From Deltaproteobacteria bacterium (GTDB lineage Bacteria; Desulfobacterota; Syntrophia; Syntrophales; UBA5619): a stretch of 64,000 bases of DNA. This document shows, in pieces, positions 25,482 through 52,362 of this stretch. The first letter of the stretch is position 1. Each line of letters opens with the position of its first letter. A model generated the notes under the pieces. It had not been told where the DNA came from, searched no databases, and worked only from the letters and a program-made list of their open reading frames with translations. The translations under genes and the position numbers were made by a program. Location: the NCBI GenBank assembly GCA_021372415.1, contig JAJFUM010000089.1, forward strand, positions 30 to 64,029, written 5' to 3'.

Positions 25482-26852
25482 TCAGAGGATCTGCGACCCC
25501 AACTCGGCGAGGGCCGAACGTTCCCCCTTGCAGAGGGTCACATGGCCGGCGATCTTCTCTCCCTTGAATCGCTCCACGAAATAGGTCAATCCGTTGCTGC
25601 TGGCATCGAGGTAAGGGTGATCGATTTGTTCCGGATCGCCGGTGAACACGATCTTTGAACCCTCTCCGATCCGGGTGACGATTGTTTTGATCATCTGCGG
25701 ACTGAGATTCTGGGCCTCGTCGCAGATGATGAACTGCCTGGGAATGCTCCGCCCCCGGATGTAGGTCAAGGGTTCCATCTCCAGGACGCCCCTTTCGAGA
25801 AGATGCTCGACGATGCGCAGGGATTTCATCCGCTCCTCATCGGGTTCCCGGCCGTTCTTCACGTTCGCCGGAAGCCTGCCGCGCCCCTCCTTGGCATCCT
25901 GGACGTTGCTGAAGATGTGTTCGATATTGTCGAAGATCGGCTGCATCCAGGGCCGCATCTTCTCGTCTTTGTCGCCGGGCAGATAGCCGATGTCGTTTCC
26001 CACCGGAACCACAGGGCGGGTGATCAACAGGCGGGAGTAAACCCTTTCATCGAGTACCTTCTGCAGCCCAACGGCCAGGGCAAGCAGCGTCTTTCCCGTC
26101 CCGGCCCTTCCCACGAGCGTTACGGCCCGGATCTGATCGTTCAGAAGCAGGTCCATGGCAAACCGCTGCTCCTTGTTGCGGGCCTTGATTCCGAAGCACT
26201 CCACGTCACCGTGGAGCAAAGGCACCAGGGTATTGTCCTGGCATCGCCCCATGGCCGACTGGGAAGGGTTGGCCGGATTCTTCAGGATGAAGAACTGGTT
26301 CGGCAATCCCCCCCATTCCTCGGGCACGGTCAACTTCTTGGTGCGGTGAAAGAGATTGATCTGATCTTCCGTGACGCTCCGATTCCCCGCCCCATCGTAT
26401 AGAACAGTGCATTGGACCTTGTCCCGGTAGAAATCCTCCGAAGCGATCCCGATCACGTCCGCCTTGATCCGGAGGTTGAGGTCCTTGGTGACCAGATGGA
26501 CATTGCAGCGCTCACGCTGGAGTTGATATGCGATCGCCAGGATCCGGTTGTCCGGCTGGCTCCAATCAATCCCCGCGGGAAGCTCGCCGCTTGACCAGTG
26601 ATTGACCTCAATCCGGAGAGAACCGCCCCCCGGCAGAACCACGCCCTCCGCCAGTCTCCCCTTTCCGCGCAGATCATCCAGGGCCCGGGAGACCTCCCGG
26701 GCATTCTTCCCGATCTCGTCCTGGCGCCTCTTCTGGCGGTCGACCTCCTCGATGACGGCCAGCGGTATCACCACTTCGTTGTCGTCAAAGGCATAGATCG
26801 CCTGAGGGTTGTGCAGGAGAATATTTGTATCCAGGATATAGGTTTTTTGCAC
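25482..26852 (-). CDS. phoH: PIN-domain-fused PhoH-family ATPase (YlaK-like)
   Basis: 'YILDTNILLHNP' PIN N-terminus and 'GRAGTGKTLLALA' Walker A. Start is GTG at 26852, preceded by AGGAGGA; the track ORF extends further upstream without support. Confidence 0.85.
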   Translation of the reverse strand: MQKTYILDTNILLHNPQAIYAFDDNEVVIPLAVIEEVDRQKRRQDEIGKNAREVSRALDDLRGKGRLAEGVVLPGGGSLRIEVNHWSSGELPAGIDWSQPDNRILAIAYQLQRERCNVHLVTKDLNLRIKADVIGIASEDFYRDKVQCTVLYDGAGNRSVTEDQINLFHRTKKLTVPEEWGGLPNQFFILKNPANPSQSAMGRCQDNTLVPLLHGDVECFGIKARNKEQRFAMDLLLNDQIRAVTLVGRAGTGKTLLALAVGLQKVLDERVYSRLLITRPVVPVGNDIGYLPGDKDEKMRPWMQPIFDNIEHIFSNVQDAKEGRGRLPANVKNGREPDEERMKSLRIVEHLLERGVLEMEPLTYIRGRSIPRQFIICDEAQNLSPQMIKTIVTRIGEGSKIVFTGDPEQIDHPYLDASSNGLTYFVERFKGEKIAGHVTLCKGERSALAELGSQIL

Positions 26853-26927
26853 CGCGTCCTCCTGATCTGGATTCGGGGTACGCCCAAGACCACGGACCGA
26901 TCCCCTGTCTACAGTTACCGCAGCGAT

Positions 26928-26966
26928 GTTGCAGAATGATGACCGAGCCGTTAATAGATGGTTGCC
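26928..26966 (-). promoter_or_regulatory. weaker Pho-box-like array upstream of phoH
   Basis: Gene-sense GCAAC-n6-TTAAC-n6-GTCAT-n6-GCAAC with 11-bp phasing. The -10 candidate TAACTG is poor. Confidence 0.35.
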
Positions 26967-27023
26967 GGCAGGCTCTCCCCCGGGAGGGGAAATGAGGGGC
27001 AGGGCATCACCGGTCGGGCACAC

Positions 27024-28001
27024 TCAGAGGGTAAGGGCCGATGCCAACCGGACCTGCATGCTGCCGGAATGACCGGGAGAGACACGCGTGTAGCGCCACC
27101 GAAGGGCACCGATTCGCCAGATCCCGTTTTCCCCCGGACCGATCTCCACTTTGCAGACAATGCCATACTGGAATTTTTTAAGCCTGAGGCCGGTGCAGAA
27201 ATCACCCAGGGAGAAGGCCAGGAGTTTCGCCGCATCGCCACGCCGCACCACCGACAGCGGCTGAGGGACATGGCAATGATGCCCCAGGACAGCGTCATAC
27301 CCGGATAGAAGATCTTCGCCTGCCTGAACGATGGCAGGCCGGGGAAACATCTCCAGTTCGTATCCCCAATGCGGATACGCCATACAGAAGGCCGCCGCAC
27401 CGGCCGAGCATCTATCGAGGACATCGAAGAAGGCGACCTCCCCGCAGGGCCGGTTGCTCCACATCGAGGCGCCGACGACCCGAACGCCATCGGCGATATC
27501 GGCAAAAGGCTCTTTCCTGAGGCCGAACACATGGAATCCCCGGTCACGCATGTGATTGATCGACTTCTTGAAGGTGGCCGCCGGATAATCTCCCGCATGG
27601 TTGTTGGCCACGCAGAGGAAGGTGCGGTCCGGCTGGAAGAGTCCGGCCAAGGCATCCAGGATGGAGGGGTTGTGCCTCTGGGCACCAGGGCTGGGCTTGC
27701 CAGCCCCGGTCACCGTCCCCTCCATGTTTCCGATTAGACGGTCGCAGCCCTGGAAGAAGAGGCGCACATCGGCCGCGATGTGGAGGGTGTGACGACCCAT
27801 GGCCATGATGTCGCCGACAACTCCCAGGGTGATCCGGGGTCGGATCGGATTCAGGATCGTTTCCTGGGGCAATGCCTGGATGCCGCAGGGATTCGTCTTT
27901 CGTACGCCCCGGATGTTCCGCCAGAGCCATACGATCGATTCCCGAAAAGGATAGGGCCCACCCCGGTCACTATCGATGCCGGATCGTTTCGTGTTTCCCA
28001 T
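27024..28001 (-). CDS. CapA-family (PGA_cap) metallophosphatase-fold protein
   Basis: 'GVVGDIMAMG', 'VANNHAGDY', 'AYPHWGYE', 'LGHHCHVPQP'. Start at MGNTKRSG; the upstream part of the track ORF is a shadow of the MBL gene. Confidence 0.75.
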   Translation of the reverse strand: MGNTKRSGIDSDRGGPYPFRESIVWLWRNIRGVRKTNPCGIQALPQETILNPIRPRITLGVVGDIMAMGRHTLHIAADVRLFFQGCDRLIGNMEGTVTGAGKPSPGAQRHNPSILDALAGLFQPDRTFLCVANNHAGDYPAATFKKSINHMRDRGFHVFGLRKEPFADIADGVRVVGASMWSNRPCGEVAFFDVLDRCSAGAAAFCMAYPHWGYELEMFPRPAIVQAGEDLLSGYDAVLGHHCHVPQPLSVVRRGDAAKLLAFSLGDFCTGLRLKKFQYGIVCKVEIGPGENGIWRIGALRWRYTRVSPGHSGSMQVRLASALTL

Positions 28002-28060
28002 GGTTAAGACAGTAATCGGCGATCTTGGCCCGCGCACGGGAATAGCGGCGTAACGCCGCA

Positions 28061-28738
28061 TCAGCGCAGGGCTTTTCGAATCACCTCGGCCGGAAAGGGC
28101 TTCCCGTGGGCCGGATAGACCGTCTTGGCGCCGGCATGCAGGAGCAACGTCCAACTCTCCCGAACCTGCTGGACGTCCTCGGCAAAGATGGGCAGACCCG
28201 GACCTAGGCGCAGAGGCCAGGCGTTCATCGCCAGATCGCCCACAAAGGCCTCCCCTGTTTCCAAGAGGACGCTGACGGAACCGCTGGAATGCCCAGGCGT
28301 GGGAAGGACGTTTCCGGGGATTCCATAGTCGTAAAGCGAAAAGGCCTGGTTCTCGAGGACGACATCGACCTTGGCCGCGGGGATGTCGATCCAGGGAAGA
28401 AAGCCCACCATGACGCCTGCCAGGAGCCGCCCCCAAGCCGTTACACCCGGCTCCAAGCGCTTTTGGGATTTTTCCAGCCACGCCTTCTCTTCGCGGTGCA
28501 GGGCCACCTTGGCCCCGGTGATGTCCCTGATGACGCTGGCCGAACCGATGTGGTCCCAATGACCGTGGGTGAGGATGATCAACCCGATCTCATCGGGTAT
28601 CAGGGAGAGCCGGTCCATGGCTCTCAGAAAGCCCCTCATCATCCCCGGCGATCCGCCGTCGATCATAACGATTCCGTCGCCTTGGAGCAGATAGCACCGA
28701 TCGGCTCCCAATTTCATGGTATGGATGAATACATTCAT
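28061..28738 (-). CDS. MBL-fold metallo-hydrolase
   Basis: 'LILTHGHWDHIG' HxHxDH motif. Start at MNVFIH (alternative 28771). Confidence 0.8.
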   Translation of the reverse strand: MNVFIHTMKLGADRCYLLQGDGIVMIDGGSPGMMRGFLRAMDRLSLIPDEIGLIILTHGHWDHIGSASVIRDITGAKVALHREEKAWLEKSQKRLEPGVTAWGRLLAGVMVGFLPWIDIPAAKVDVVLENQAFSLYDYGIPGNVLPTPGHSSGSVSVLLETGEAFVGDLAMNAWPLRLGPGLPIFAEDVQQVRESWTLLLHAGAKTVYPAHGKPFPAEVIRKALR

Positions 28739-28784: not shown

Positions 28785-29708
28785 TCAGAGCGGATCCCTC
28801 CTGAAGTACCTCCAGACCCCCAGCACACCGATCAGGGAGATCACCGAGAGACCGAGGATGATCCAGAAGGCGTAGTCGTTTTTCTGCAGGGGGATGGCCA
28901 CGTTCATGGAGAAGGTGCTGACCACGAGCGTGGGGATCATGATGCCGATCGTAACGATGTTCAGCCGCTTCATGAGGATGTTCAGGTTGTTGTTGACGAT
29001 GGAGGCCCGGGCGGCCGTCATCGACGAGAGGATATTGGAATACATCCTGGCCTGCTTGAAGCACTGGTAATTCTCGATGATGATGTCATCGAGGAATTCC
29101 CGGTCTTCCGGAGAGCGGAGCATCTGCTGGCCCAGGTGCCTCATCTTCTCCAGGAGGGCGCTGTTGGACGACATGGCGTTGAGATAGTAGACCAAACTCT
29201 TTTCGAGATCGAAGAGCTGCAGCAGATACCGGTTCTCCATGGAAGAACTGATCTTTTCCGACAGGTCTTCGGAAACCCGGGCGATGATCTGCAGGTGGGT
29301 CCGGAAGAGGGAAATGGAGGCATTGATGAGTTTGAGCATCACCTCCTCCGGACGGCCGATTCTGGAAAAGGGTCTTCCCGAGAAAGGTGCAGGTTCCTCG
29401 GCGGAGACGACGATCAAAAGATCCGCAAAGAGGAAGAAACCGACGGACGTAACTTTGAATTCCAGGTCCCCTCCGGGGACATGGTTCCGGGGAACCTTGA
29501 AGATCACGGCCCGATGGTTCGGCTCAATCTCGATGCGGGCCTGTTCGTCCGGGTCCAGGGTGGAATGGAGGGTATGCTCATCAAGCCCGTGATGATGAAT
29601 CAGGACCCTCTGCTCGTCCTCATCGGGAGCGGCAAACCAGGCAACCCGCGCAAAAGCCGGGTGGCATTCGACCAGGCGCTCGTCTTCGATGTTGTAAGAC
29701 CGTATCAT
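28785..29708 (-). CDS. CorA-family divalent-cation channel homolog with SMN in place of GMN
   Basis: Cytoplasmic N-domain plus two C-terminal TM helices. Signature position reads 'STFSMNVAIP' instead of YGMNF. Confidence 0.7.
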   Translation of the reverse strand: MIRSYNIEDERLVECHPAFARVAWFAAPDEDEQRVLIHHHGLDEHTLHSTLDPDEQARIEIEPNHRAVIFKVPRNHVPGGDLEFKVTSVGFFLFADLLIVVSAEEPAPFSGRPFSRIGRPEEVMLKLINASISLFRTHLQIIARVSEDLSEKISSSMENRYLLQLFDLEKSLVYYLNAMSSNSALLEKMRHLGQQMLRSPEDREFLDDIIIENYQCFKQARMYSNILSSMTAARASIVNNNLNILMKRLNIVTIGIMIPTLVVSTFSMNVAIPLQKNDYAFWIILGLSVISLIGVLGVWRYFRRDPL

Positions 29709-30121: not shown

Positions 30122-30649
30122 CTAAGCAGCGCCAGATTGCCCCCTCCTTTTTGGAGAGGCGCTATTTTTTATGAGGGGTTTCTTCCGCACGGACGCTTTC
30201 AATCGTTTCGTGCCATGTCCCACGTTTCTTTTTTCAATCGTTCCGGAAAACGTTTCATTCCTGTGCGTGTCGCTCGTTCCCGCTTCCAGGCTGTTTCCGC
30301 CCGGTTCACCGGACGGTTCGGGGAGGGATCCCGGCCGGTTACGGGGCGCGTAGTCTGCCGCCTCCGATCGGGGAATCGAAAAGATCTCCTTCTCTTTCCC
30401 TAACGACCAGGATTCCCGGATCCTCCACGAGAGCTTGAGGACCATTTTCTCTTTCCAGATCCCATGGCTCGCTTTGCTCGCCGCTTCCAGTTCGATGGAG
30501 ACCGGCGTCCGGGGCTTGAGCAGAATGGACTTCCCCTCGTGGGTGAGGTAAATGGTCCCCTGCTTGAGACATTCGATCAAGCCCTCCAAGTAGCGGGCGG
30601 CAACGGAGAATCCCGTTCTCGTTCGGACCCGTAGGTATTGGTCGGACAT
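30122..30649 (-). CDS. amphi-Trp domain protein (paralog B) with about 90-aa low-complexity basic tail
   Basis: 'LEGLIECLKQGTIYL...ILLKPRTPVSIELEAASK...KMVLKLSWRI', then a Ser/Pro/Arg/Lys-rich tail. Confidence 0.65.
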   Translation of the reverse strand: MSDQYLRVRTRTGFSVAARYLEGLIECLKQGTIYLTHEGKSILLKPRTPVSIELEAASKASHGIWKEKMVLKLSWRIRESWSLGKEKEIFSIPRSEAADYAPRNRPGSLPEPSGEPGGNSLEAGTSDTHRNETFSGTIEKRNVGHGTKRLKASVRKKPLIKNSASPKRRGQSGAA

Positions 30650-30667: not shown

Positions 30668-31885
30668 TTATGTTAAGGACAGAAGGACATCGCAGAGACG
30701 TTCGGGATCCACATAGGGCGAGCTGTCCTCGGTGACCAGCGTCGCTTCGAGGATCCCGATCCCCCACTCACGGATCCTCTCCAGATCGAGATCGAAAGGA
30801 TACCTCCCCCACCTGCTGTCCAAGACGATCCAGTCCAGATAGTCCGTCGGTTCTCCCGGATGATCCCCCTGAAGACAGCGGATCATGGTCCGGACGGCAT
30901 CGCCCAGGGACATCCCTGCCTGCTCCGTGTCCGGGAGCGTGTTGGGAACAAAGACTTTTGGACAGCGGTTGGCCGCAATGGCGGCACCCACGCCCCGTGG
31001 AAGGAGATTCGCCAGAACACTCGAATAGAAGCTCCCCATGGGGTAACAGATGATCTCGGCGCCGTCGATCAGAGCCGCGGTTTCAGAGGAGATCTCCGTC
31101 TGGACCCGCTCGGGCAGATCGACCGAAGCGCTCAGGAACAGCTCATCGATGGGGCTTCTCGCCTTGAGAAACGCATCGCCGGTGATCCGATGCTGTCCTA
31201 CCAGGGTCTGACCGCTTTGGAGTCTCGCCGCCAGGTGGAGGTCGTCGGTGACGACGGGCCTGACCAGTCCCTGGACCTCCACCAGCCGTGAAAAGAGATA
31301 GATGACCGTCTCGATGTGGCGATGGTGGTTCAGATAGCCCGCCGTCAGGATGATATTGCCGATGTTGGCCCCCCTAAGATCGAAGTCGCCGGGCATGAGC
31401 CGGAGGAAGTCCTCGATATGGCCGCAGACGATGGACCGCATCGGCACGGGGATGCCGTCGACGAGGGAATCCAGGCCTTCGGCGATCATCTGCAGCTTCT
31501 CCCGGAGTCGGTCCGACGGATCGTCCGCAGGAAGCCGGTAGGAAAAGAGTCGATAGATTTCCGGGTTGCCCTTGATGGACTGATCGGCAAGGGCCATGAG
31601 GCGGTTCCTCACATCCCCGATGGAAAGCATCCGAAAGGCACGGCGGATCTCGGCGGAACTGCCCCCGGAATCGAAGGGGGTGATGATGTGGACGGAATTG
31701 TGGGTATACCGGATCAGGGTCTTGCTGAACCGTTTGAGGGCAGTGCCGCCGCTGAAGAAGAGCAGGCGCGGTCCGAGTTCGGGCGCCTTTTCGTAACGGG
31801 CGATCTTCAGTTTGTCCGGCAACAGGGCGCGGCGTTGCAGAACGATCCGCTGCGGAAGTCGTCCCGGGTCCTGCAGGGCCATCAT
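30668..31885 (-). CDS. CofD/YvcK-like protein (GAK-type)
   Basis: 'LLFFSGGTALKRF', 'ITPFDSGGSSAEIR', 'GNIILTAGYL' typical of the CofD/UPF0052 fold. Start at ATG 31885 (ATGA overlap with upstream stop, GGAGGGG RBS). Confidence 0.75.
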   Translation of the reverse strand: MMALQDPGRLPQRIVLQRRALLPDKLKIARYEKAPELGPRLLFFSGGTALKRFSKTLIRYTHNSVHIITPFDSGGSSAEIRRAFRMLSIGDVRNRLMALADQSIKGNPEIYRLFSYRLPADDPSDRLREKLQMIAEGLDSLVDGIPVPMRSIVCGHIEDFLRLMPGDFDLRGANIGNIILTAGYLNHHRHIETVIYLFSRLVEVQGLVRPVVTDDLHLAARLQSGQTLVGQHRITGDAFLKARSPIDELFLSASVDLPERVQTEISSETAALIDGAEIICYPMGSFYSSVLANLLPRGVGAAIAANRCPKVFVPNTLPDTEQAGMSLGDAVRTMIRCLQGDHPGEPTDYLDWIVLDSRWGRYPFDLDLERIREWGIGILEATLVTEDSSPYVDPERLCDVLLSLT

Positions 31886-32973
31886 GTCCCCTCCTGCCGC
31901 AGGAAGTCGAGGCAAAAAACCGCCGCCCCGTCGAAATCGATGCCCCCGGTCGCCTCAAAGACGGCACAGTTGCGGAGCTGTTCCACGTAACGTTCGCTTG
32001 AAAAATCGGGCGGCGTCTCCAATTCCTCGGGAAGAAAGAAGAGACCGGGAGGCTTGATGAAGGCGGCCAGGAGATCCCGCCGCTGGTCGATATCCACCCG
32101 GCGAATGCAAAGGGGCCCGCCGTCTCTCCTCCAGTTGAGCAGAAGCAGGCCCTTCATCAGGGCGCTCAGTTGAAACTTCTTCTCGCCGAAGACCTCGTCA
32201 ATCACCACGTCGTATTTGCGCTCCAAGTGCCATAACGCCTCGGAGTCCCAATCGGCGTACAACCGCCGATCCTCATCGCTGATCACGTCCCGAAGAACCG
32301 GGACGGACAGGAGGGTCCCCGGATTGACGCGGGGCTGCTTGGGAATGCCGTACATCCTGAGGCGTCCCCAGCGCTCCGCGGTCATCAGCCGGTCGTTGCT
32401 GACGAAGGAGGCCCCCCGTGTCAGAAGATGAAGCGCAAGGCTCGACTTGCCGCTTCCGGAGAAACCGGCCAGGGCCATTCCCCGATCCTCCAAGGCAACA
32501 CCGGCCGCATGGGCCAGCAGACTCCCTCCCCGGAGCATCCGCTCGATAAAGCGGTTGTTGATGAAATTGACGATCTGATTGCTGTTGGCCCGGCAAGGTC
32601 CGACCGCCAGATTGTCCTGGCCGTTGAAGAGGAAGCAGAGGCCGGTCAGGCGCTTCCGGACGATCCTTCCGCCCGCCAGGTCCGCATACTCCTCCTTGAC
32701 CCGGGTCTTGCCCGGATCGGGGTCCTTTTGCCGAAGGACCAGGGGCAGGGGCATCTCATCGGCCTCGATGGCGTAGATCAGGATGTCCTCCTGGGATTCC
32801 CAGCAGGTGAACTCCTTGAAGTAGCGGCGCAACTCCGCCATCAGGTCCGGTGAATTCGACTTGACTTGAATGATCAGCTCCCCGATCCCGACAAATAGCC
32901 GCTCATGGGTCGGATACCGATTCAGGACATCGGCGAAGAGATTCTGGAACAGGACCGTCTGCGGATTATTCAT
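31882..32973 (-). CDS. HprK-related P-loop kinase (kinase B type)
   Basis: 'HAAGVALEDRGMALAGFSGSGKSSLALHL' matches the HprK C-terminal kinase Walker A context. 8-nt overlap with the ATP-grasp gene. Confidence 0.7.
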   Translation of the reverse strand: MNNPQTVLFQNLFADVLNRYPTHERLFVGIGELIIQVKSNSPDLMAELRRYFKEFTCWESQEDILIYAIEADEMPLPLVLRQKDPDPGKTRVKEEYADLAGGRIVRKRLTGLCFLFNGQDNLAVGPCRANSNQIVNFINNRFIERMLRGGSLLAHAAGVALEDRGMALAGFSGSGKSSLALHLLTRGASFVSNDRLMTAERWGRLRMYGIPKQPRVNPGTLLSVPVLRDVISDEDRRLYADWDSEALWHLERKYDVVIDEVFGEKKFQLSALMKGLLLLNWRRDGGPLCIRRVDIDQRRDLLAAFIKPPGLFFLPEELETPPDFSSERYVEQLRNCAVFEATGGIDFDGAAVFCLDFLRQEGT

Positions 32974-33847
32974 GAACGGCCTCCAGAACGGAATCCACGA
33001 TCATCTCGGCCATATTGATCCCCTGGGCCTCCCAGAGTCCCCGAAACCCGCCCAGGGCCGAGACCTCGAAGACCATCGGCCCTTCCCGGCCTTCCACGAC
33101 GTCTACACAGGTGAAATCGAGCCCGAACAGCGCCGCGGCCCGGGAGGCCAGCTCGACAATGTCCCGGGAGGGTTTCGCGGCCTCGTAGCGCCCTCCGTTG
33201 ACCGTCGTCGTGTTCCAGGACCCGCCCGGGGCGACACGGGCGTAGGCGCCCACATAGCGCCCCCGGAGAAAGGCGATCCCCAGGTCCCGGCCCGGCAGGT
33301 CGATCTTCTTTTGCACATACAGGACGCAATTGCCCAGGTCCCTGAAGGCACCGATGCTTTCCCGCAGTTCCGGATCGTCGCTCTTCATCACCTCCATCCC
33401 TCGGGCCTTGGAGGTGAAAAGCGGCTTGAAGACGGCTTGCCCGAACCGACGGACGGCCGCCTCGGCCGCCTCGATATGCTCCGTCAGGACTGTCTCCGGC
33501 ATGGGAATCCCCCCGAGCCGCAGGGTGAGGGTGCAGCTGAGACGATCCAGACAGCGGGCAATGGCGGCGGGATCTGAGAAGACCCTGACTCCCCGCTCCC
33601 GAAGGTAACGCAGCATCTCCAGGCGCTGGAGATGGTCCGGACTGTACCGCGCACCGATCTTCTTCACGATCAGGCCGTCGAGCGTGCCCAGATCGATCCC
33701 CTTGTAGAACAGCGTCTCCCGCCGCGATTCATAGCGAACGCGGTCCATCTCCACCAGGAGCCGAAAGCCCGTCTTCTTTTCGACGGCCGCCGTCATCTCT
33801 TCCGAGGACCATCCCCCGGAAATGCCGACGACACCGATCTTCACCAT
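32966..33847 (-). CDS. RimK-like ATP-grasp ligase (GAK-type)
   Basis: 293 aa with a RimK/alpha-L-glutamate-ligase-like layout ('VFKPLFTSKARGMEV', 'VLYVQKKIDLPGRDLGIAFL', 'FTCVDVVEGREGPMVFEVS'). Confidence 0.8.
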   Translation of the reverse strand: MVKIGVVGISGGWSSEEMTAAVEKKTGFRLLVEMDRVRYESRRETLFYKGIDLGTLDGLIVKKIGARYSPDHLQRLEMLRYLRERGVRVFSDPAAIARCLDRLSCTLTLRLGGIPMPETVLTEHIEAAEAAVRRFGQAVFKPLFTSKARGMEVMKSDDPELRESIGAFRDLGNCVLYVQKKIDLPGRDLGIAFLRGRYVGAYARVAPGGSWNTTTVNGGRYEAAKPSRDIVELASRAAALFGLDFTCVDVVEGREGPMVFEVSALGGFRGLWEAQGINMAEMIVDSVLEAVHE

Positions 33848-33897: not shown

Positions 33898-35535
33898 TCA
33901 ATAAACCCAGATATCCCGGGGAACGCGGAACTGTTCCCAGGGCCTTCCCTCGTGCTCCAAGAGCCGATCCAGCAGGTAGATCCCCCGCAGAAAAAGGTCC
34001 TTGGAAAAATCCTCCTTGAGGATGAACCTTGTGGAGGAGATCAGAGACCGGATCAGGCCGAGGGCCAATCGGGCATCGAAGGTCTCGTCCCCGTGCCGTT
34101 CCGAGAACTCCCTCGCGAAGCAGTAGAACTCATCGATCACCTCCGACAGCCAGTGGCGCAAGCCTGGATTGAACAGGGGCATCCGGAAATTCGAGATCAT
34201 GAAGACGGACACGTCCTGCACATAATCCAGGTCGTGGGAACGATGGAGGTCGATATAGTAAATGCGGTTTTCCCGGTGATTGTAGAGGATGTTGTCCGCA
34301 TTGAAGTCCCCATGGATGAAGACGGAAAAGGGAGGCGTCAAGGCCGCTTCGATCCTCGCCGCCTGCTTCAGCCGATCGACGAAGGGCGGCCGTTCCAAGC
34401 TGCCGATGATCTGAGTCGGCCTGTTGAAGGACGAGTGGACCTCATAGACTTCGGGTAATTTCCCCAGGAGCTGCCGCATGAAGTTCGCCGGTTTCCCCTC
34501 GGGAAGCTTGGTCCGGGTCCAGACCGCATCCATGACGCCCTTCAGCTCTCTGAAGGCCTGCCGGAACAGCGCGCCGTTCTGCTTGATGACGATCTCCTGA
34601 AAATTCAGGCCTTCGATGCACTCCAGAAGCATGAACGCCTTGCCGTTGAGGGGCTGGAAACCGAAGACCTTCGGCGTCAAGCCCGGCATGATCTCCTGCC
34701 AGCGCCCCAGTTTCTCCCTCTCCTGTTCGATCTTCCCCAGTTCCCCCTCCTTGAAGATCACCTCCTGGACGCCTTTCGGGATATCCGGGGATACGACCTT
34801 CTCGATGCGGCATCCCGAACGGGTCTCGGCATGGATGTCTTCGATGGTGAACTTGCCGCCGGCCGCGGGGAGGTGGTCCTGCAGAGCCAAATACTCGAAG
34901 AGTTTCAGTCTGCTGCCGGCATAGGCGGAGATGATGGCCTCTCCGATGTTGAGAAGCGAATCGCCGATCCGCTCCAGGTAACGGAGGATCATCAGGGCGG
35001 TGACCGCATTGCCGATGTCGCGCCCCTCCCGGAGGATCGCCATGAGGGCATCGAAATCCCGCTTGTAGAGCCGATCCAGCTCGATCTCCGCCCGGCAGAC
35101 GGCCAGGGCGTCCTTGACGATTCCCTTGAACAGGCTGGGCACGATCAGGTCGAGGGCCTCCTCAATCACCCGGAAATAGGCCTGGTAGTCGAAGTGACCC
35201 ATGAAGGTGGGGTCGCTTAAATACTGCACCTGGGTCACGATGTTGATCAGGTAGTCGCCGATCTCCTCGAGGTTGCTCACGGCCGTGTTGAGGGACCCCA
35301 TCATCCGGATGACCCGGTCGTCTTCCGAGCGGCTCCTCAAAATCTTCCGGTAGCTCTTCCGTTCGATGGTGATCTTGAGATTGTCGATATAGTCCTCGCG
35401 GGTCCTCATACGGTCCGGAAGGGTCTTCTCACCGAGCTCCAGGACACCGAGCGTGTCCTCCAACTGTCGCCGGATCCGCACAACGAGAAACATGAAGTTT
35501 TCATTGAGGCCCTTGAAGGCAAACATCGGACTCAT
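33898..35535 (-). CDS. fusion protein: two PhoU repeats plus APH/choline-kinase-like phosphotransferase domain
   Basis: PhoU signatures 'LEEIGDYLINIV' and 'LERIGDSLLNIGEAI' (compare the canonical phoU here: 'LERIGDMAANITE'). C-terminal 'FIHGDFNADNILY' (HxDxxxxN catalytic loop) and 'IYYIDLHRS'. Start is ATG 35535, in ATGA overlap with the amphi-Trp C stop. Confidence 0.75.
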   Translation of the reverse strand: MSPMFAFKGLNENFMFLVVRIRRQLEDTLGVLELGEKTLPDRMRTREDYIDNLKITIERKSYRKILRSRSEDDRVIRMMGSLNTAVSNLEEIGDYLINIVTQVQYLSDPTFMGHFDYQAYFRVIEEALDLIVPSLFKGIVKDALAVCRAEIELDRLYKRDFDALMAILREGRDIGNAVTALMILRYLERIGDSLLNIGEAIISAYAGSRLKLFEYLALQDHLPAAGGKFTIEDIHAETRSGCRIEKVVSPDIPKGVQEVIFKEGELGKIEQEREKLGRWQEIMPGLTPKVFGFQPLNGKAFMLLECIEGLNFQEIVIKQNGALFRQAFRELKGVMDAVWTRTKLPEGKPANFMRQLLGKLPEVYEVHSSFNRPTQIIGSLERPPFVDRLKQAARIEAALTPPFSVFIHGDFNADNILYNHRENRIYYIDLHRSHDLDYVQDVSVFMISNFRMPLFNPGLRHWLSEVIDEFYCFAREFSERHGDETFDARLALGLIRSLISSTRFILKEDFSKDLFLRGIYLLDRLLEHEGRPWEQFRVPRDIWVY

Positions 35536-35824: not shown

Positions 35825-36967
35825 TCAAACCGTTCCGCCGGCAAGGCGGGATTGGTACTCGTCGATGACCTTTCTCTTGTCGAAATCCCCCATATTGAGA
35901 ATCTTGCGGACGGCCGTATCGTCCCAGGGGGGTTGATGGCCGATTTCACGGGCGGCCTTGTCGGGATCCTGTTGTTCGGGATCGAGGATCTTTTCGCTCA
36001 GATGGGTATCGTCCCCCATCATGACCAGCAGGCGTCTGCCCCCCTGCCCGGCCTTGTTCTTCCTGATCACCGTCTGGATCAAGAATTCCGTAAACTCCCG
36101 GGATTGCGGATTCCAAACCTCATAGCCGTCCACATCATAATCGGCCAGAAGGACAGGCCAGAACTGCTCCGGATGGGGCACGACGACCCCGCCGGCCAAT
36201 CCTCTGGCCTCCTCGATGATCTCGTTCACCTCATAGAAATAGTCGAGACGAAACCGTCGCTTCACGACCTCCTTGACCCCGGCCGCAAAGATCACCGACC
36301 TGTCGATTGCATGGGCATCGTAAAACTCCCGATGGGCGTTGATGTAACTGATCACCAGCTTGTTCTTCAGCGCCATGTCGGGAATCGAATCGGACCTCAA
36401 TTCAATCATCCTTTTGAGCTTTCCGGCCAGGACCCCGGTAAAGAGGACCAATGCTTCCTCGGTTCCCGTATGCCTGGCCGCTTCCAGGAGGCACCCCTCA
36501 TGACGGGGATCGACCAACGTCTCCAGAAACTCGAACAACTGCGTCTGTCGATACTGGCGGGTATGGGCGATCATGGACCTCAGGCTGTGGGCCTTTTCGA
36601 TCTCTCCGGACCGGAAATGGAGCAGGATCTGAATCTTGCGATTGAAGGCATCGGCCCGACAGTCTACCTCGGCACCCGCGTAATCGCCGTAGACGAGGAT
36701 CTCATTGTGCTGGGTCGGAATGATCAGGGTCTGACCGGCATGGGGATAGACCCTCCGCAGCCTCGTTTCGACCAGCGGCAGGGGGACCATCTCCGGGTGC
36801 CAGTGGATGGCCAGAACAGACCCCTCCGTGTCGAAAATCTTCCCCGGGCAGACGATGCGTTCGATCTGCAGCGGGGTGAGTTCCATCGCGGTCAGTTTCT
36901 CAAAGATCTGCAGATCCCATTCCGTAATTTCCTCCACGGCATCCTGGAGGTTTCTGATTGCTGGCAT
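35825..36967 (-). CDS. hypothetical protein, possible PHP-like metal-dependent phosphoesterase
   Basis: His/Asp motifs in PHP-like order: 'AIHWHPE' (HxH), 'PTQHNE', 'VVPHPEQF', 'DGYEVWN', 'MGDDTHL' (GxDxH). Start uncertain (ATG 36967 or TTG 37006). Confidence 0.4.
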   Translation of the reverse strand: MPAIRNLQDAVEEITEWDLQIFEKLTAMELTPLQIERIVCPGKIFDTEGSVLAIHWHPEMVPLPLVETRLRRVYPHAGQTLIIPTQHNEILVYGDYAGAEVDCRADAFNRKIQILLHFRSGEIEKAHSLRSMIAHTRQYRQTQLFEFLETLVDPRHEGCLLEAARHTGTEEALVLFTGVLAGKLKRMIELRSDSIPDMALKNKLVISYINAHREFYDAHAIDRSVIFAAGVKEVVKRRFRLDYFYEVNEIIEEARGLAGGVVVPHPEQFWPVLLADYDVDGYEVWNPQSREFTEFLIQTVIRKNKAGQGGRRLLVMMGDDTHLSEKILDPEQQDPDKAAREIGHQPPWDDTAVRKILNMGDFDKRKVIDEYQSRLAGGTV

Positions 36968-37014
36968 GAACAACGGTCCCTCGCCTCCGAAATTTTCATT
37001 ATCCAATCATCAAA

Positions 37015-37282: not shown

Positions 37283-39718
37283 GTGAGCAGAAATGAAAAC
37301 GCCCTGTCCCCCCCCGTGGTCCCGATGCGGGGGCCGGAGGAGCGGCTTCTCTCCTCCCGGGAGGCGATGGAAAGACTGGACGTTTACGGGCCGGCCGGTA
37401 TTGATGCAGAGGCCCTGCCCTTCTCCCTTTACGATACCACCGCCGGAAGCGAAACCGAGCTACAGGCCGTCGTGATCGGAAAGCGGGAAGACGTCGACCT
37501 CCCCATCACGATCACTCAGTCCCACTACCTGGCCAACATCATCCGGCGCAGGGCCTCCGGCGAACTGCCGGGACGAGCGATGACCGAGTTGGAAAGGTAC
37601 CTCCAAGACAATGTCGACGGCGTGTGGGAAAACAGCTGGGTCCGCTTCCCCAGGGACATGCTGGGCCCCTTCGCCCAGGGGATCCTCAGTGGCGACCTCT
37701 TGGCGGACAAGGCCGACCCTTCCCAGGGATACCGGACCGACCTGACCGATTTCATCTTCCGGCAGGAAGACCGGGAATATCTCCGCATCCCGATCAGTTA
37801 TCTGCTGAAGCTCTCCCTGGCCGAGGCGATCGACGGACAGCCGCCCGCCGTGGCCGAGACGGGACGCAGCCTGATGGATCACTTCCTGAGCGACAACACC
37901 TCGCCGGAGATCTGTTCCTTCCAGGTCTCATCCCTCACCCCCCGGACCGGGATGGGCCGAGAGGTGGCCAGGGAATCGGCGAAGCGGTTCCTCCTGACGC
38001 AACTGCTCGTCCAGTACGCGAACCAGCGTTTCGGCCTCATGCAGAGCGGGCAGAAGGCGATGGTATTCTATTCGCCCCATCCGCCGATCCGTCAGAAGAG
38101 GCTCAACGCCTGCATCTCCGACGCCTTCTACCGGGAGCTTTTCATGAACCCCTGCCTTTCGGGTTGGAACCGCGGCGAGATCAAAAAGGAATACATGCAC
38201 CTGTGTCATCGGGTCCTGAGCCGCAGCCAGCTCAACGCCCTGGGGAAGCTCCGCGAATCGGGCATCATCACCCGCAACCTCGTGGTCCTTCCGAATACCT
38301 CCAACATCTGCCTGGCCAACAACGGAACGCACGTCAGCCTCGGCAGCCGAAAAATCACCGCTCTCCTGAAGGACCCGGCCTCCGGCTTCACGGCCCGCCA
38401 CGAGAAATACCTCGGGGATCTGGTCATCAAGATCCTGGAGCATTTCCTCCCCCTCTTCGTGGGCACCTACAGTGCGACCCCCTACCGGCTCGACTACTCG
38501 GAATTCCATCCGGAATGCGTCCTGGGGTTCCTTCCCCATGAACTGGATTTCGACCACCTGCGCATGCTCTGGAGGCGGTGGCAGAAGAAGGCGGACATCC
38601 GTGTATTCGGGAAAACCGTGACCCCCTTCGGTCCCCCCTGGCTCGACGGGGCGATCCGTGCTGTTTTCAGGCTCCGCGGCGATTTCCTCCCCGACTTCCG
38701 CCTCATCGACTACCTGGTGGCCCTGAGGAGCACTGAAAAGAGCCCGGCCCTGGACGGAATGCTTCACAACCACGACCGGCTCAAGCAGGATCTTGCCGAA
38801 CTGGGCGTCTTCGACAAGCGGATGTCCCTCTACCTGTTCAACAAACTCCGCGAGTATGCCACCATGGGGTTCTCCGGCTTCGAGGGACGCTCCTACAGCC
38901 TCTTCTTCAATCTCGAAGAGGATATGGCCGGGGCCGTGGACCTGCAGAACCTCTTGGCGGCCCTTGCGTTCCAATATATCGCCGGGGGGATCGCCGACCA
39001 CGACCGTATCCCCGACGATCCTTTTGTCGAGAGCGAGAGACGGCAAATCGTCTTCGGGCGGGCCGTGGGCATCCCCACTTTTTTCGTCCGCCAGGACACC
39101 CAGAACCTCTTCCTGCAGCGGATCATCGAGAAGACCCAGCGGGTCAGGGTCAGCCGGCGCTATCCCGGCTACTGGAGGGTCCACCACCGGGAGTATTGCC
39201 GGGCCCTCGTGCGACTTATCCGGGAAGACGGGGCGGATCTGATCAAAACTCTCGGGATGGCCGAAAAGATCGCCGACCTCGAAAAGAGGCTGGAAGATCC
39301 TGACCGCTGTTCCGCCCTGGGAAAGCTGACGCAGGCCATCCTCCAAAAGGCCAGGGCCGCCTCCCCGATGGCGGTGCAGGCCGCAAACTTCAATCGGAGC
39401 GCCGAGGACTACTACCGCAACGACCTGCGGAAGGCTCACGCCATGGAAGGGGTCCGCTTTCTTGAGGAAGACCTTCGGCGCATCGCCTCGACCGCCTGCA
39501 ACGAAAAAGAAACCCTGAACGCCCTCCTCCGGCAGATCGGCGGTGACGGGTCCTGCTCCGAATCCTTCAGATGGGCCATCAACGACGAAAATACCCCTCC
39601 GCAAATCTTACGCAGCCTGATTTCCATCCTGATCGTCACCGTCGGCTTCGATCGCCGGGAGTCTGAACGGGCAACCGTCGAGATGGCCGGTCACCGCCTG
39701 GACGCGGTTCACCAGTAG
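37283..39718 (+). CDS. large conserved-looking hypothetical protein (811 aa), no family recognised
   Basis: Long ORF with balanced amino-acid composition, unlike its Arg/Gly/Pro/Asp-rich antisense shadow. AAAGGAA RBS 7 nt before the GTG. No TM segments or signal peptide. Confidence 0.6.
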   Translation: MSRNENALSPPVVPMRGPEERLLSSREAMERLDVYGPAGIDAEALPFSLYDTTAGSETELQAVVIGKREDVDLPITITQSHYLANIIRRRASGELPGRAMTELERYLQDNVDGVWENSWVRFPRDMLGPFAQGILSGDLLADKADPSQGYRTDLTDFIFRQEDREYLRIPISYLLKLSLAEAIDGQPPAVAETGRSLMDHFLSDNTSPEICSFQVSSLTPRTGMGREVARESAKRFLLTQLLVQYANQRFGLMQSGQKAMVFYSPHPPIRQKRLNACISDAFYRELFMNPCLSGWNRGEIKKEYMHLCHRVLSRSQLNALGKLRESGIITRNLVVLPNTSNICLANNGTHVSLGSRKITALLKDPASGFTARHEKYLGDLVIKILEHFLPLFVGTYSATPYRLDYSEFHPECVLGFLPHELDFDHLRMLWRRWQKKADIRVFGKTVTPFGPPWLDGAIRAVFRLRGDFLPDFRLIDYLVALRSTEKSPALDGMLHNHDRLKQDLAELGVFDKRMSLYLFNKLREYATMGFSGFEGRSYSLFFNLEEDMAGAVDLQNLLAALAFQYIAGGIADHDRIPDDPFVESERRQIVFGRAVGIPTFFVRQDTQNLFLQRIIEKTQRVRVSRRYPGYWRVHHREYCRALVRLIREDGADLIKTLGMAEKIADLEKRLEDPDRCSALGKLTQAILQKARAASPMAVQAANFNRSAEDYYRNDLRKAHAMEGVRFLEEDLRRIASTACNEKETLNALLRQIGGDGSCSESFRWAINDENTPPQILRSLISILIVTVGFDRRESERATVEMAGHRLDAVHQ

Positions 39719-40814: not shown

Positions 40815-42671
40815 TCAAACATGGAGCCGTTGCTCGAAGAGATATCCACTCTTCCCTGTTTCTTCCGTCAGCCTTTTGACCTTCTTTTTCAGCGAAGCGG
40901 CGACTTCCGAAAAGAGGGCCGGATGCGGGTCCACCCAGACCTTGCTGCTGTCGATAACGGCCAGACTCATGGTGATCAGCGGCGTGATGAGCGGATTGCC
41001 CTGACGGTCCGCCGCTCCAAGGATACAGCCCCTTTCGACGTCTTCGTTCTTGAACAGGCCGAGTTTCTCAGCATCAAAGCCACTGCACAGGCATTCCAAT
41101 GCCTCTTCCCGGATGATGCCCCGGTTGACGATCACAAAGTCGTCGCCGCCGATATGTCCCAACCGGGCCCCCTCCGGAAGTCGGTTCAGCCAGTCGCCCA
41201 AGACCCGTGCCGTGAGGCAGAGCATCTCATCCCCCATGAGAAACCCGTAGGTGTCGTTGTAAACCTTGAAATGGTCGAGATCGATATAGATGATCGAATA
41301 TTCGGGCCAAGTCAGGGCATCATGGATCCATCGGTGAATCGCGTTGTTACCCGGCAGTCCCGTCAGCGGGTTGACCCCCATGGCGGAGCGGATCTCCAGT
41401 TCCAGCGATTTGGTCATCACCTGCTTCATGGTCACGGTCCCCATGAATTTCCCTTCGGCATCCACCACCAGAACCGGGTCGTACAGGTCTTCTGAATGGC
41501 GATCCATCGCCAGTTTCGCCATCATCGTCACCGTCATCTTGTCCTCGACGATCAGGGGATTGGGTTTGCAGACGACCTCGATGGGCTTTTTCTGGAAGAG
41601 CTGATATCCGAAGGCGCCCCCGGTTTCCGCATAGAAATTCTGCCGCGTGATCATCCCGGCGATGCTGTCCCCGTCGAGGAGGATCACGTGATCCAAGTGG
41701 GTCCGCTTTTTGAATATCATATTCAGATCCTTGCAGTGCAGGGTGTGGGCGGCAATCGTCATGGGGCGGATCACGAGACTGGCGACCTTCTCGTCCACAT
41801 CGATCGTGGCCTGGTCGTATTTATCGATCAGCGCCCTGAGTTTCTTTCTCATCTCCTCTGAGAGGGCATAAGGTTCCCGCTCGGGCCGACCGAAGAGGAA
41901 GCCCTGGGCGTACCGGACGCCGTACCGGACCAAAACCTCCAACTCCTCCAAAGACTCGACGCCTTCGGCGATCAACCTGGCGTTGACGCTGGAAGCAAAA
42001 GCCGTAATGGCCTTGACGATCTTCTGCTTGTAGTCGTGGCGGTGGACATCCCGGACGATCGCCATATCCAGTTTCAAGTAATGGGGGGTCGAGGCGATCA
42101 GGGTCACCAGCCCCGAATAGCCGGACCCGAAATCATCCACGGCGATCTTGAAACCCTGGTTCGCGTAATGGGCGACCAGCGTCCCGAACTGTTTGAAATC
42201 CTCGAAAGTCTTTTCCTCGGTGATCTCGATGACGATCTGCCTCTGATCAATGCCGTACTCCCGGAGGCGCTTCTGGGTGAATTTCTCGATGAACCGGGGG
42301 TCGCTGAAGATATCCGGGCTGACGTTGATAAAGAACAGGACATTTCGGAACGGTTCGGGAAGGGAGGCGATCTTCCTGAGGGCGGCGACACGGCAGGCCC
42401 TCTCCAGATCCCAGGTCGCCCCCCGCTGTTTGGCTGCCGAGAACATCTGGCAGGGAGTCTCATAAGGGGCAACGCCTCTGGAGAGGATTTCAAACCCCGT
42501 GACCGAGGCGGAGAAAAGATCGATCACCGGGTGGAAATGAGGGGTCACCTGAATCGATTCGACAAAGGCATCCACGTCCGTTCCCCCGACAGCCCTGGAG
42601 CGGCTGGGGGCCTCCGCATCACGGGAAGCCTCTTCCATCAGCTGGGCATACATGTTTTTTCTCTCCGACAC
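40815..42671 (-). CDS. EAL - CBS pair - degenerate GGDEF (GGDDF) c-di-GMP signalling protein
   Basis: N-terminal EAL domain ('FEILSRG', 'IVIEITEE', 'KIAVDDFGSGYS', 'IAEGVES'), central CBS-like pair, C-terminal 'RLGHIGGDDFVIV'. Confidence 0.85.
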   Translation of the reverse strand: MSERKNMYAQLMEEASRDAEAPSRSRAVGGTDVDAFVESIQVTPHFHPVIDLFSASVTGFEILSRGVAPYETPCQMFSAAKQRGATWDLERACRVAALRKIASLPEPFRNVLFFINVSPDIFSDPRFIEKFTQKRLREYGIDQRQIVIEITEEKTFEDFKQFGTLVAHYANQGFKIAVDDFGSGYSGLVTLIASTPHYLKLDMAIVRDVHRHDYKQKIVKAITAFASSVNARLIAEGVESLEELEVLVRYGVRYAQGFLFGRPEREPYALSEEMRKKLRALIDKYDQATIDVDEKVASLVIRPMTIAAHTLHCKDLNMIFKKRTHLDHVILLDGDSIAGMITRQNFYAETGGAFGYQLFQKKPIEVVCKPNPLIVEDKMTVTMMAKLAMDRHSEDLYDPVLVVDAEGKFMGTVTMKQVMTKSLELEIRSAMGVNPLTGLPGNNAIHRWIHDALTWPEYSIIYIDLDHFKVYNDTYGFLMGDEMLCLTARVLGDWLNRLPEGARLGHIGGDDFVIVNRGIIREEALECLCSGFDAEKLGLFKNEDVERGCILGAADRQGNPLITPLITMSLAVIDSSKVWVDPHPALFSEVAASLKKKVKRLTEETGKSGYLFEQRLHV

Positions 42672-42829: not shown

Positions 42830-43534
42830 TCAGGCTTCGTCGGCGAACTTGTAGCCGATACCGCGGACGGTCAGGATATACCGTGGGTTCGAAGGGTCCG
42901 GCTCGATCGCCCCCCTCAGGCGGCTGATGTGGACATCCACCGTCCGGGGCTCTACGAAGGACTCGTCACCCCAGACGCGGTCGAGAAGCTGTTCGCGGCT
43001 GTAAACCCGGCCGGGATGGCCAATGAAGAACTGCAGCAGTTTGAACTCGCGGGAGCTGAGCTCGACCTCCCTGCCCTCAAGGGTCACGCGGTAGGCCTTC
43101 AAATCGACGTGGAGCCCCTGGAAATCGAAAGACTCCGGCAGGTTTTCGTCCGGGTGCTGATCCGATCGCCTCAGGACGGCGCGGACCCGGGCGATCAGCT
43201 CCCGAACATGAAAAGGCTTGGTAAGGTAGTCGTCCGCCCCGATCTCCAGCCCCAGGATCCGGTCCACAGGTTCAGACTTGGCGGTCAGCATGATAATGGG
43301 CAGATTCGCCGTCTCGGGGACGCCCCGGACGATCCGGCACACCTCCGTTCCCGATACCCCGGGCATCATCAGGTCCAAGACGACCAGGTCCGGCTTGTCA
43401 CGCCGGATCGATTCCAGGGCGCTGCCGCCATCCAGGGCCTTCAGGACGGAGAATCCTTCCCGTTCGAGATTGTAGGCAACCAGTTCCACGATGTCTTTCT
43501 CGTCGTCGGCAACGAGGATCTTCTTCTGCGTCAT
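42830..43534 (-). CDS. phoB: OmpR/PhoB-family response regulator
   Basis: Receiver 'ILVADDE...DLVVLDLMMPG' plus winged-helix 'REFKLLQFF...VDVHISRLR'. Last gene of the pst-phoU-phoR operon. Confidence 0.85.
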   Translation of the reverse strand: MTQKKILVADDEKDIVELVAYNLEREGFSVLKALDGGSALESIRRDKPDLVVLDLMMPGVSGTEVCRIVRGVPETANLPIIMLTAKSEPVDRILGLEIGADDYLTKPFHVRELIARVRAVLRRSDQHPDENLPESFDFQGLHVDLKAYRVTLEGREVELSSREFKLLQFFIGHPGRVYSREQLLDRVWGDESFVEPRTVDVHISRLRGAIEPDPSNPRYILTVRGIGYKFADEA

Positions 43535-45977: not shown

Positions 45978-46000
45978 GGTTCCTCCTTCGGCTCTGATGC

Positions 46001-46771
46001 TTAACCGAACCGACCGGTGATGTAATCCTCAGTCTGCTTCACATCCGGGTTGGTGAAGATCTTTTCCGTGGCGTTGAATTCGATCAGTTTGCCCATGTAG
46101 AAAAAACCCGTGTATTCCGAGACGCGGGCCGCCTGCTGCATGTTGTGCGTCACGATGATGATCGTGTAGCGTCTCTTGAGTTCGTCGATGAGCTCTTCGA
46201 TCTTCGCCGTGGAGATGGGATCGAGCGCCGAGGTCGGTTCGTCCATCAAAAGGACGTCGGGCTTCATGGCCAGCGCCCTGGCGATGCAGAGGCGCTGCTG
46301 CTGTCCGCCGGAGAGGGTCATGGCAGATTTTCCCAGGATGTCCTTCACCTCGTCCCAGAGGACCGCCTGTTTGAGGCTCTCCTCCACGAGGTTCTCCAGA
46401 TCGCCGTTGTTCCGGACGCCGGAGAGTCTCGGGGCGAAGGTGATATTGCTGAAGATCGACTTTGGAAAGGGGTTGGGCTTCTGGAAGACCATCCCGATCC
46501 GCTGGCGGATCCCCACGGGGTCCACGTCGGGGGCGTAGATGTTCTTCCCCTCGAACAGGATCTCCCCCTCCACCCGCGTCCCGTCGATCAGATCGTTCAT
46601 CCGGTTGAGGAGCCGAAGGAGCGTCGATTTGCCGCAACCCGACGGCCCGATCAAGGCGGTGACGCGGCTCTTTTCGAAATCCAGCGTCACGTCAGTCAGG
46701 GCCTTGAAGGCACCGTAATAGAAATCCACGTTCTTGGCCGTGATGATCATCTCTTTTTCCACATCTACCAC
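46001..46771 (-). CDS. pstB: phosphate ABC transporter ATP-binding protein
   Basis: 'NVDFYYG', 'GPSGCGKST', '[14 protein letters not shown]', '[12 protein letters not shown]'. Confidence 0.92.
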
Positions 46772-52346: not shown

Positions 52347-52362
52347 GGACCTCTCGACCTCT

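Follow-up and report, generated by a model that had tools for sequence, protein, structure and literature searches.

PhoU modulates both PhoR and PstB and acts between PstSCAB and PhoR; its ligand and the mechanism of its output are still debated. HPr is switched by the phosphorylation of a serine (Ser46), and the HPr kinase/phosphorylase responsible is phosphate-sensitive; members of the HprK family have proteins or peptides as substrates. CofD-family enzymes are the phospholactate transferases of coenzyme F420 synthesis. A PhoU-type domain, an HprK-related kinase and a CofD-like protein are encoded together in a 64,000-nucleotide stretch of contig JAJFUM010000089.1 (assembly GCA_021372415.1, positions 30 to 64,029, forward strand), from a deltaproteobacterium of the order Syntrophales (UBA5619); this whole stretch is referred to below as the window. 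The gene analysed here encodes a PhoU module covalently joined to a kinase of the APH/choline-kinase type. By synteny, it is a core member of the GAK system, a catalogued and uncharacterised gene cassette, with no GAK model covering it.

A first-pass annotation of the window had described the gene as two PhoU repeats linked to a kinase-like half. All of the motifs quoted for it are found in the translation, namely NLEEIGDYLINIV, YLERIGDSLLNIGEAI, HGDFNADN and 'IDL', the last within YYIDLHRS, and Pfam, profile, AlphaFold2 and homologue evidence establishes a true one-gene fusion. The Pfam PhoU family (PF01895) matches two stretches (E 6.6e-18, 65.3 bits against a gathering cut-off of 23.5) and Pfam APH (PF01636) is matched at E 8.9e-8 (32.6 bits, cut-off 23.2), with a weaker match to EcKL. 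A profile built from 40 homologues matches solved PhoU structures at 1e-20 and APH(3')-Ia at 1.9e-5. The AlphaFold2 model (predicted local distance difference test, pLDDT, 89.3; predicted template-modelling score, pTM, 0.71) has six helices at residues 7–206 followed by a bilobal kinase; the short inter-module linker, at about residues 207–260, is of lower confidence. In Foldseek comparisons, the N-terminal part of the model matches the PhoU structures 4q25 and 1t72 (template-modelling, TM, scores 0.83 and 0.82) and the C-terminal part matches APH(3') enzymes (E about 1e-7, TM about 0.55–0.6; APH(3')-Ia at E 8e-8). These domain assignments are well above chance. The PhoU part consists of two three-helix repeats making one six-helix bundle, rather than the four-helix bundles mentioned earlier.

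The fusion has many relatives. A search of 5.8 billion proteins found 994 homologues; among the best 120 of these, almost all are 538–560 amino acids (aa) long, with query coverage of 97–100% and identity of 41–67% (one is near-identical, 99%), and nearly all have PhoU plus APH/EcKL domains. As to the taxonomic spread of PhoU + APH combinations, a survey of which had been proposed, relatives of the fusion occur in at least 514 genomes (one genome per species was scanned), belonging to Syntrophales, Desulfovibrionales, Desulfarculales, Nitrospinota, Planctomycetota, Ignavibacteria, Spirochaetia, Acidobacteriota, Myxococcota and candidate phyla. The closest locus, in an uncultured Syntrophus genome, shows 94% identity and identical synteny. 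When the kinase half alone was compared with 1.84 billion cluster representatives, 343 proteins reached E<=1e-3, of which 219 reached E<=1e-30; among the best 150 matches, nearly all are 530–620 aa long and begin to match near residue 225–290. The short kinase-only match that was checked (P0281) begins at base 14 of a 1.4-kb contig and is explained as a contig-end fragment. Since the kinase half alone retrieves almost solely fusion-length proteins, the kinase clade is sharply delimited and its fusion to PhoU obligate, in the sense of essentially always present.

The kinase nature of the C-terminal half is upheld by the fold match and by the catalytic set K262, E272, H408-G409-D410, N415 and D429, all invariant in an alignment of 40 orthologues with 41–67% identity; neither a non-kinase fold nor lost catalytic residues were found. 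S240-G241 of the glycine-rich loop, N412 and R432-S433 are invariant too, K262 lying in FKEG and R432-S433 in IDLHRS; E272 is the alphaC glutamate. The kinase-half profile aligns residue-for-residue with APH(3')-Ia at sGcri/QSGATI, ifKeG/FLKHG, HGDFnaDN/HGDFSLDN and iDlhrs/IDVGRV (family consensus first), which, from knowledge of the superfamily, we take to be the nucleotide loop, the ATP lysine, the Brenner catalytic loop and the metal-binding aspartate, respectively. Pfam APH and EcKL are matched by 13/13 tested family members (best APH match 1.6e-14) and choline kinase by 8/13. As the superfamily catalytic motifs are all kept, the enzyme should be active. The substrate lobe contains seven arginines, R432, R451, R460, R489, R496, R503 and R517, invariant in the same alignment, which gives a hint that the substrate may be anionic.

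In the PhoU module, the motifs N88-L-E90-x3-D94 and E188-R189-x-G191-D192 ... E199 are invariant among the same orthologues, giving one E/D-xxx-D motif per repeat (E90/D94 and E188/D192). An active kinase bearing a functional PhoU-type ligand site is very probable on these grounds. The separate canonical PhoU of the window, reported earlier, was located at 45285–45977 (minus strand) and bears LERIGDMAANITE.

All four catalogued GAK families (TIGR04354, TIGR04355, TIGR04356 and TIGR04357) score above their cut-offs in the operon of the window, co-directionally with the fusion gene (Table 1). The first-pass annotation overlooked this cassette, with its second kinase, ATP-grasp ligase, CofD-like protein and phosphoesterase, and also the fact that the fusion family is already widespread in databases. 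None of the GAK family models matched the fusion or the 393-aa protein encoded upstream; the fusion is matched solely by PhoU and APH models. The conserved gene order is PHP-like phosphoesterase, amphi-Trp protein, PhoU-kinase, ATP-grasp ligase, HprK-related kinase B (HprK-B), CofD-like protein and further amphi-Trp proteins. The translational coupling of the amphi-Trp gene just upstream with the fusion gene, pointed out earlier, holds: the fusion ATG overlaps the stop codon of the 93-aa amphi-Trp open reading frame as ATGA at 35532–35535. Likewise, the HprK-B gene shares 8 nucleotides (32966–32973) with the end of the ATP-grasp gene, and the ATG of the CofD-like gene overlaps the HprK-B stop codon as ATGA at 31882–31885, which indicates coupling along the operon. 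A promoter and terminator scan of 28.5–37.4 kb gave nothing above shuffled background. Pfam CofD matches the CofD-like protein at 8.5e-39, and the closest named relatives of the ATP-grasp ligase are MptN (7e-47), LysX and CofF.

Table 1. Features of the PhoU-kinase cassette and of the fusion protein in the window.
Feature	Position	Strand	Basis
PHP-type (TrpH/YciV-like) metal phosphoesterase, divergent, predicted; conserved 393-aa protein	35825..37006	minus	fold and invariant ligands
Upstream (U-type) amphi-Trp protein, 93 aa	35532..35813	minus	TIGR04354 9e-17, PF20068
PhoU-APH fusion gene	33898..35535	minus	single open reading frame, ATG at 35535, stop codon 33898-33900, 545 aa + stop
PhoU module, residues 7-206, six helices in two repeats	34918..35517	minus	AlphaFold2 secondary structure, Foldseek, invariant columns
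APH/choline-kinase-type kinase module, residues 230-545	33901..34848	minus	invariant columns, APH(3')-Ia alignment, Foldseek, Pfam
HGDFNADN catalytic loop, residues 408-415	34291-34314	minus	invariant columns
Metal-binding D429	34249-34251	minus	invariant columns
GAK-system ATP-grasp ligase (RimK/MptN-like)	32966..33847	minus	TIGR04356 2e-122, above cut-off
HprK-related kinase B	31882..32973	minus	TIGR04355 6e-141
GAK-system CofD-like protein	30668..31885	minus	TIGR04357 3e-150; likely start ATG at 31885 after GGAGG
Downstream (D-type) amphi-Trp protein, 175 aa, basic C-terminal tail	30122..30649	minus	TIGR04354 5e-8
Second downstream (D-type) amphi-Trp protein, 99 aa	29779..30078	minus	TIGR04354 2.7e-11

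Synteny was scored on 82 non-redundant loci, all collected by means of the fusion itself, with evaluable loci as denominators. An amphi-Trp gene lies directly upstream of the fusion gene in 71/72 loci and the PHP-like gene is present in 67/72. The ATP-grasp gene is present in 59/63, HprK-B in 56/63 and the CofD-like gene, the least conserved member, in 43/63, with extra downstream amphi-Trp genes in 30/63. The GAK cassette, until now four named families, thus comprises at least six conserved genes and can be described as a six-to-eight-gene cassette. Its carriers include Thermodesulfobacteriota (Desulfovibrionales, Syntrophales), Nitrospinota, Planctomycetota, Ignavibacteria, Spirochaetia and other anaerobes. 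Some Desulfovibrionaceae have a reduced cassette that keeps the PHP-like gene, amphi-Trp, the fusion and HprK-B alone; in Desulfolutivibrio (locus L001, 10913–14763), it is followed by genes for Rrf2, a hybrid histidine kinase and a response regulator. Dde_3717–3719 of D. alaskensis G20, described as a co-fitness cluster (PMC5193443), have the same gene order; the fitness cluster Dde_3711–3719 of this strain may possibly be linked to the cassette.

The 393-aa protein has no Pfam or NCBIfam match. It has 1504 homologues which, wherever named in the source, are always called 'hypothetical protein'. Its invariant set comprises H68-x-H70, H100, E113, D115, H130, H148, H278 and D333-x-H335. Its AlphaFold2 model (pLDDT 91.8, pTM 0.86) matches 3e0f, 9etk (RNase AM) and 2yb1 in Foldseek with probability 1.0 and TM scores of 0.49–0.57. 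Because of this match of the model to the PHP fold, the protein is predicted to be a divergent PHP-type metal phosphoesterase. One relative of the fusion, P0356 (locus L086, 4379–7408), is a 1009-aa protein with a calcineurin-type phosphoesterase N-terminal to PhoU-APH; it is encoded in a GAK cassette that lacks the PHP-like gene, with a histidine-phosphatase gene upstream. Homology of its N-terminus to the PHP-like protein was considered and none was found. The phosphoesterase part is intact (DxH, GDxxD and GNHD; Pfam Metallophos 22.5 bits against a cut-off of 21.5). An unrelated phosphoesterase thus fills the same slot in physically fused form, which argues that the kinase and the phosphoesterase work as a pair. 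It is quite likely that the fusion is an integral GAK component paired with a phosphoesterase.

Amphi-Trp proteins of the U type are about 90 aa long and share an invariant tryptophan as well as the acidic motif F-x-H/Y-E-S-L-Q-D at the N-terminus. The D-type paralogues group apart from them and have the motif L-x-I-S-x3-P at the C-terminus. The near-invariant adjacency (71/72) and translational coupling of the U-type gene make the protein a plausible kinase substrate, as the first-pass annotation had proposed, and its role as the phosphoacceptor is put forward tentatively, at clearly less than an even chance. Direct fusion of amphi-Trp to the kinase was also considered and rejected, as none of the fusion-family proteins was found to have an amphi-Trp domain. 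In Dissulfuribacter thermophilus, an amphi-Trp protein is among the 20 most abundant proteins in a proteomics table for one growth condition (PMC13490349), an abundance that suggests stoichiometric rather than catalytic amounts for some amphi-Trp proteins.

The cassette is recurrently linked to phosphate genes. In the window, a complete pstS-pstC-pstA-pstB-phoU-phoR-phoB block occupies 42830–50012 (minus), on the same strand as the cassette and 6–13 kb from it, and pstB and/or canonical phoU lie within 10 kb of the cassette in 12/82 loci. In L020, L028, L037, L044, L046, L047, L062 and L073, pstB and/or phoU precede the cassette on its own strand, in many cases with the PHP-like gene as the next gene; directly upstream, same-strand linkage is seen in several Desulfovibrionaceae, Desulfohalobiaceae, Desulfurivibrionaceae and Desulfococcus loci. 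The pst-linked loci belong to about six family-level lineages, and by our estimate chance alone would account for fewer than one of them, given one or two pst operons per multi-megabase genome. A PIN-PhoH (PhoH2-type) protein is encoded at 25482–27023 (minus), downstream of the cassette; this family occurs within 10 kb of the cassette in 8 loci and directly upstream of the PHP-like gene in L007. The recurrent pst-phoU and PhoH-PIN linkage is real, if circumstantial, support for a phosphate-related role of the cassette, and the 12/82 pst linkage together with the invariant E/D-xxx-D motifs makes phosphate gating of the kinase plausible.

From the above, we infer a substrate, a mode of gating and a physiological role. 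The kinase module would use ATP to phosphorylate a hydroxyl of an anionic substrate, either the co-encoded amphi-Trp protein(s) or a metabolite built by the cassette or loaded onto amphi-Trp. The partner phosphoesterase would reverse or process the phospho-mark, while the fused PhoU module would set kinase activity according to phosphate or divalent-metal status, so that the cassette would be an output branch of phosphate homeostasis. A PhoU-controlled kinase/phosphoesterase pair acting on amphi-Trp or on a cassette metabolite is the best explanation as a whole, and we regard it as equally likely to be right or wrong; control of the kinase by phosphate or metal status via the PhoU module is an evenly balanced proposition in its own right.

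A narrower form of this explanation would have the phosphate-gated pair write and erase a phospho-mark on amphi-Trp, possibly one that is extended into a phosphodiester or glutamyl group. It would constitute a post-translational Pst-PhoU branch, parallel to PhoR-PhoB transcription control, in anaerobic bacteria. Taken as a whole, this version is improbable, if worth stating.

Several observations weigh against a PhoU-controlled pair of this kind. APH, EcKL and choline-kinase families phosphorylate mostly small molecules, not proteins, and this prior favours a small molecule over amphi-Trp as the acceptor. The serine of the U-type motif is present in 67/79 sequences (85%), with alanine in 6 and glycine in 2, and is therefore no strictly conserved acceptor. 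The triple fusion P0356 is one metagenomic sequence. No pst gene lies within 10 kb in 70/82 loci, and no Pho box of the Desulfovibrio-type consensus YGTNAC-N4-YGTNAC was found upstream of the cassette: the scan gave 2 matches at <=1 mismatch, against 4.65 expected by chance, neither in the cassette promoter region. The PhoU module belongs to the PhoU domain family but is a non-canonical PhoU, as the fusion scores under the PhoU equivalog cut-offs (TIGR02135, 59.9 bits against 130.25; NF008332, 37.4 against 342). Full-text literature searches found no paper on the GAK system, amphi-Trp function or a PhoU-kinase fusion, the one mention being the proteomics table for Dissulfuribacter thermophilus.

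The small-molecule preference of these kinase families leads to the strongest rival, a biosynthetic pathway. By analogy with coenzyme F420 and tetrahydrosarcinapterin side chains, the kinase would phosphorylate a metabolite hydroxyl, the CofD-like protein would transfer a phospho-linked group and the ATP-grasp enzyme would add glutamate, giving a phosphodiester-glutamyl compound. Amphi-Trp proteins would then serve as binders, carriers or regulators and would not be substrates. Such a pathway fits the APH, EcKL and choline-kinase matches of the tested kinase domains, the nearest relatives of the ATP-grasp enzyme and the role of the CofD family in F420 synthesis. Amphi-Trp C-termini are not conserved, which argues against ligation to them of the RimK/LysX type and so speaks for the pathway. 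The cassette, however, has no nucleotidyl-transferase or other activating enzyme, 1–4 small amphi-Trp proteins are always present, and HprK-B comes from a family with protein or peptide substrates. Moreover, the CofD-like gene is the member most often missing, and the reduced cassettes dispense with both it and the ATP-grasp gene. The pathway is possible, at well below an even chance; the option in which the acceptor is a small anionic metabolite that then passes to the CofD-like and ATP-grasp enzymes merits similarly guarded credence.

The scarcity of nearby pst genes, the missing Pho box and the low equivalog scores would also be expected if the PhoU module were purely structural, serving dimerisation or docking (e.g. 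for amphi-Trp or HprK-B) in a system unrelated to phosphate status. The metal- and phosphate-binding E/D-xxx-D motifs are nevertheless invariant in both repeats, the pst-phoU linkage spans about six family-level lineages at a frequency beyond our estimate for chance, and the other cassette enzymes all handle phosphoryl groups; a purely structural module is accordingly unlikely, though it deserves serious attention.

Weak matches to TCAD9, the kinase domain of ternary conflict systems (0.0033 for the protein of the window, and seen in 12/13 members), could suggest an anti-phage or conflict-system component. At 17 bits, far under the cut-off of 40, they represent sub-threshold generic kinase similarity; the cassette holds a stable syntenic position beside housekeeping phosphate genes and PADLOC defence models gave 0 matches among nine cassette proteins. 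The defence reading was rejected as very improbable. An antibiotic-resistance (aminoglycoside or other) phosphotransferase with a chance N-terminal extension is less probable again: APH(3') enzymes are the best matches in structure and sequence among solved structures, but the APH(3') resistance equivalog NF033068 scores 22.2 bits against a cut-off of 205, the identity of the kinase half to APH(3') is 14–18%, and the context is a conserved chromosomal cassette in anaerobes. The substrate pocket of aminoglycoside kinases is acidic, unlike the arginine-rich C-lobe of the fusion. A resistance identity was discarded on the equivalog score and genomic context. Finally, an assembly artefact, with two genes run together by a frameshift, has next to no probability, being ruled out by hundreds of independent full-length homologues of equal length and architecture, by the continuous and confident AlphaFold2 model and by the near-constant PhoU fusion of the kinase clade.

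Several neighbouring genes may be noted. An 811-aa protein (37283–39718, plus strand), divergent from the cassette, has no Pfam or NCBIfam match. A strong homologue (2e-265) adjoins the cassette in a Nitrospinae genome (L003, 1680–4031) and a weaker one does so in L077; the protein is therefore cassette-linked in two phyla that are only distantly related. In 9 loci (e.g. L013, 5875–8388, minus), a divergent gene upstream of the cassette encodes a protein of about 838 aa that has a GT4 glycosyltransferase domain and weakly matches PHP at its N-terminus; a relationship to the 811-aa protein was considered, and the two are unrelated. A protein of about 206 aa without a family match is encoded just upstream of the PHP-like gene in 38/82 loci (e.g. 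L001, 5806–6426); the window showed no counterpart of it.

Directly after the last amphi-Trp gene lies a gene for a CorA-like Mg2+ channel (28785–29708, minus), also found in the Syntrophales loci L005, L007 and L008, followed by one for a PGA_cap-type metallophosphatase-like protein (27024–28559, minus). The pst block, PhoH2, CorA and the cassette form a largely co-directional phosphate-related region of about 25 kb. An EAL-CBS-GGDEF cyclic-di-GMP protein (40815–42671, minus) is encoded between phoB and the cassette, with homologues near the cassette in L003, L008, L031 and L033. Upstream of pstS are genes for a multihaem cytochrome c7/c3 fused to a cytochrome b561-like membrane domain (49643–51592, minus) and, beside it, a tandem rhodanese protein (51594–52466, minus). 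The G+C content is 57–61% across the phosphate/GAK region (16000–50000) and 63–68% in 1–14000, 52–56 kb and 60–62 kb of the window.

The fusion is no new-sequence discovery; its homologues are already in databases under generic names ('PhoU domain-containing protein', 'phosphotransferase', 'phosphate uptake regulator'). What is added here is the obligate nature of the fusion, its place in an extended cassette, the identity of the phosphoesterase partner and the recurrent pst-phoU linkage. In this clade, PhoU always comes joined to a simple, assayable enzyme, which offers a direct test of what PhoU senses (phosphate, metals or polyphosphate) and of how it passes the signal on. The orphan GAK cassette can now be viewed under one coherent theme, phosphoryl transfer taking place on small amphi-Trp proteins or around them, with phosphate homeostasis as the physiological lead.

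Compared with known systems, the fusion shares with PhoU (PF01895/TIGR02135) the two-repeat six-helix bundle and the E/D-xxx-D motif in both repeats, and its cassette is often encoded near pst genes. Canonical PhoU, however, is a stand-alone protein of about 230 aa encoded in the pst operon, as is the separate phoU of the window, whereas the fusion has 545 aa and is covalently joined to a kinase. With APH(3'), choline-kinase and EcKL enzymes (PF01636, PF01633 and PF02958), the kinase module has in common the bilobal fold, the glycine-rich loop, the ATP lysine, the alphaC glutamate, the Brenner motif HGDxxxxN and the downstream metal-binding aspartate. It differs from APH(3') in its arginine-rich lobe, its N-terminal PhoU module and its conserved operon in place of a resistance context, and is an APH-superfamily member that is not an APH(3') enzyme. 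The 393-aa protein matches the fold of TrpH/YciV-type PHP proteins (RNase AM, 9etk; Cv1693, 2yb1; BAD_1165, 3e0f) and keeps the metal-ligand set HxH ... H ... E ... H ... H ... DxH; it differs in having no detectable sequence family and a large helical insertion (about 133–250). With respect to the GAK system, the fusion and the PHP-like gene are proposed as additional core members beyond the four named families. HPr kinase/phosphorylase, acting on Ser46 of HPr, provides the working analogy for a write/erase cycle: both systems combine a P-loop kinase of the HprK family with a co-encoded small, conserved protein, and both have opposing phosphoryl-transfer activities. Amphi-Trp, however, is unrelated to HPr and the match of HprK-B to HPr kinase is partial (25 bits, below cut-off); in the GAK cassette, it is a second kinase, of a different fold, that carries the sensor-like domain.

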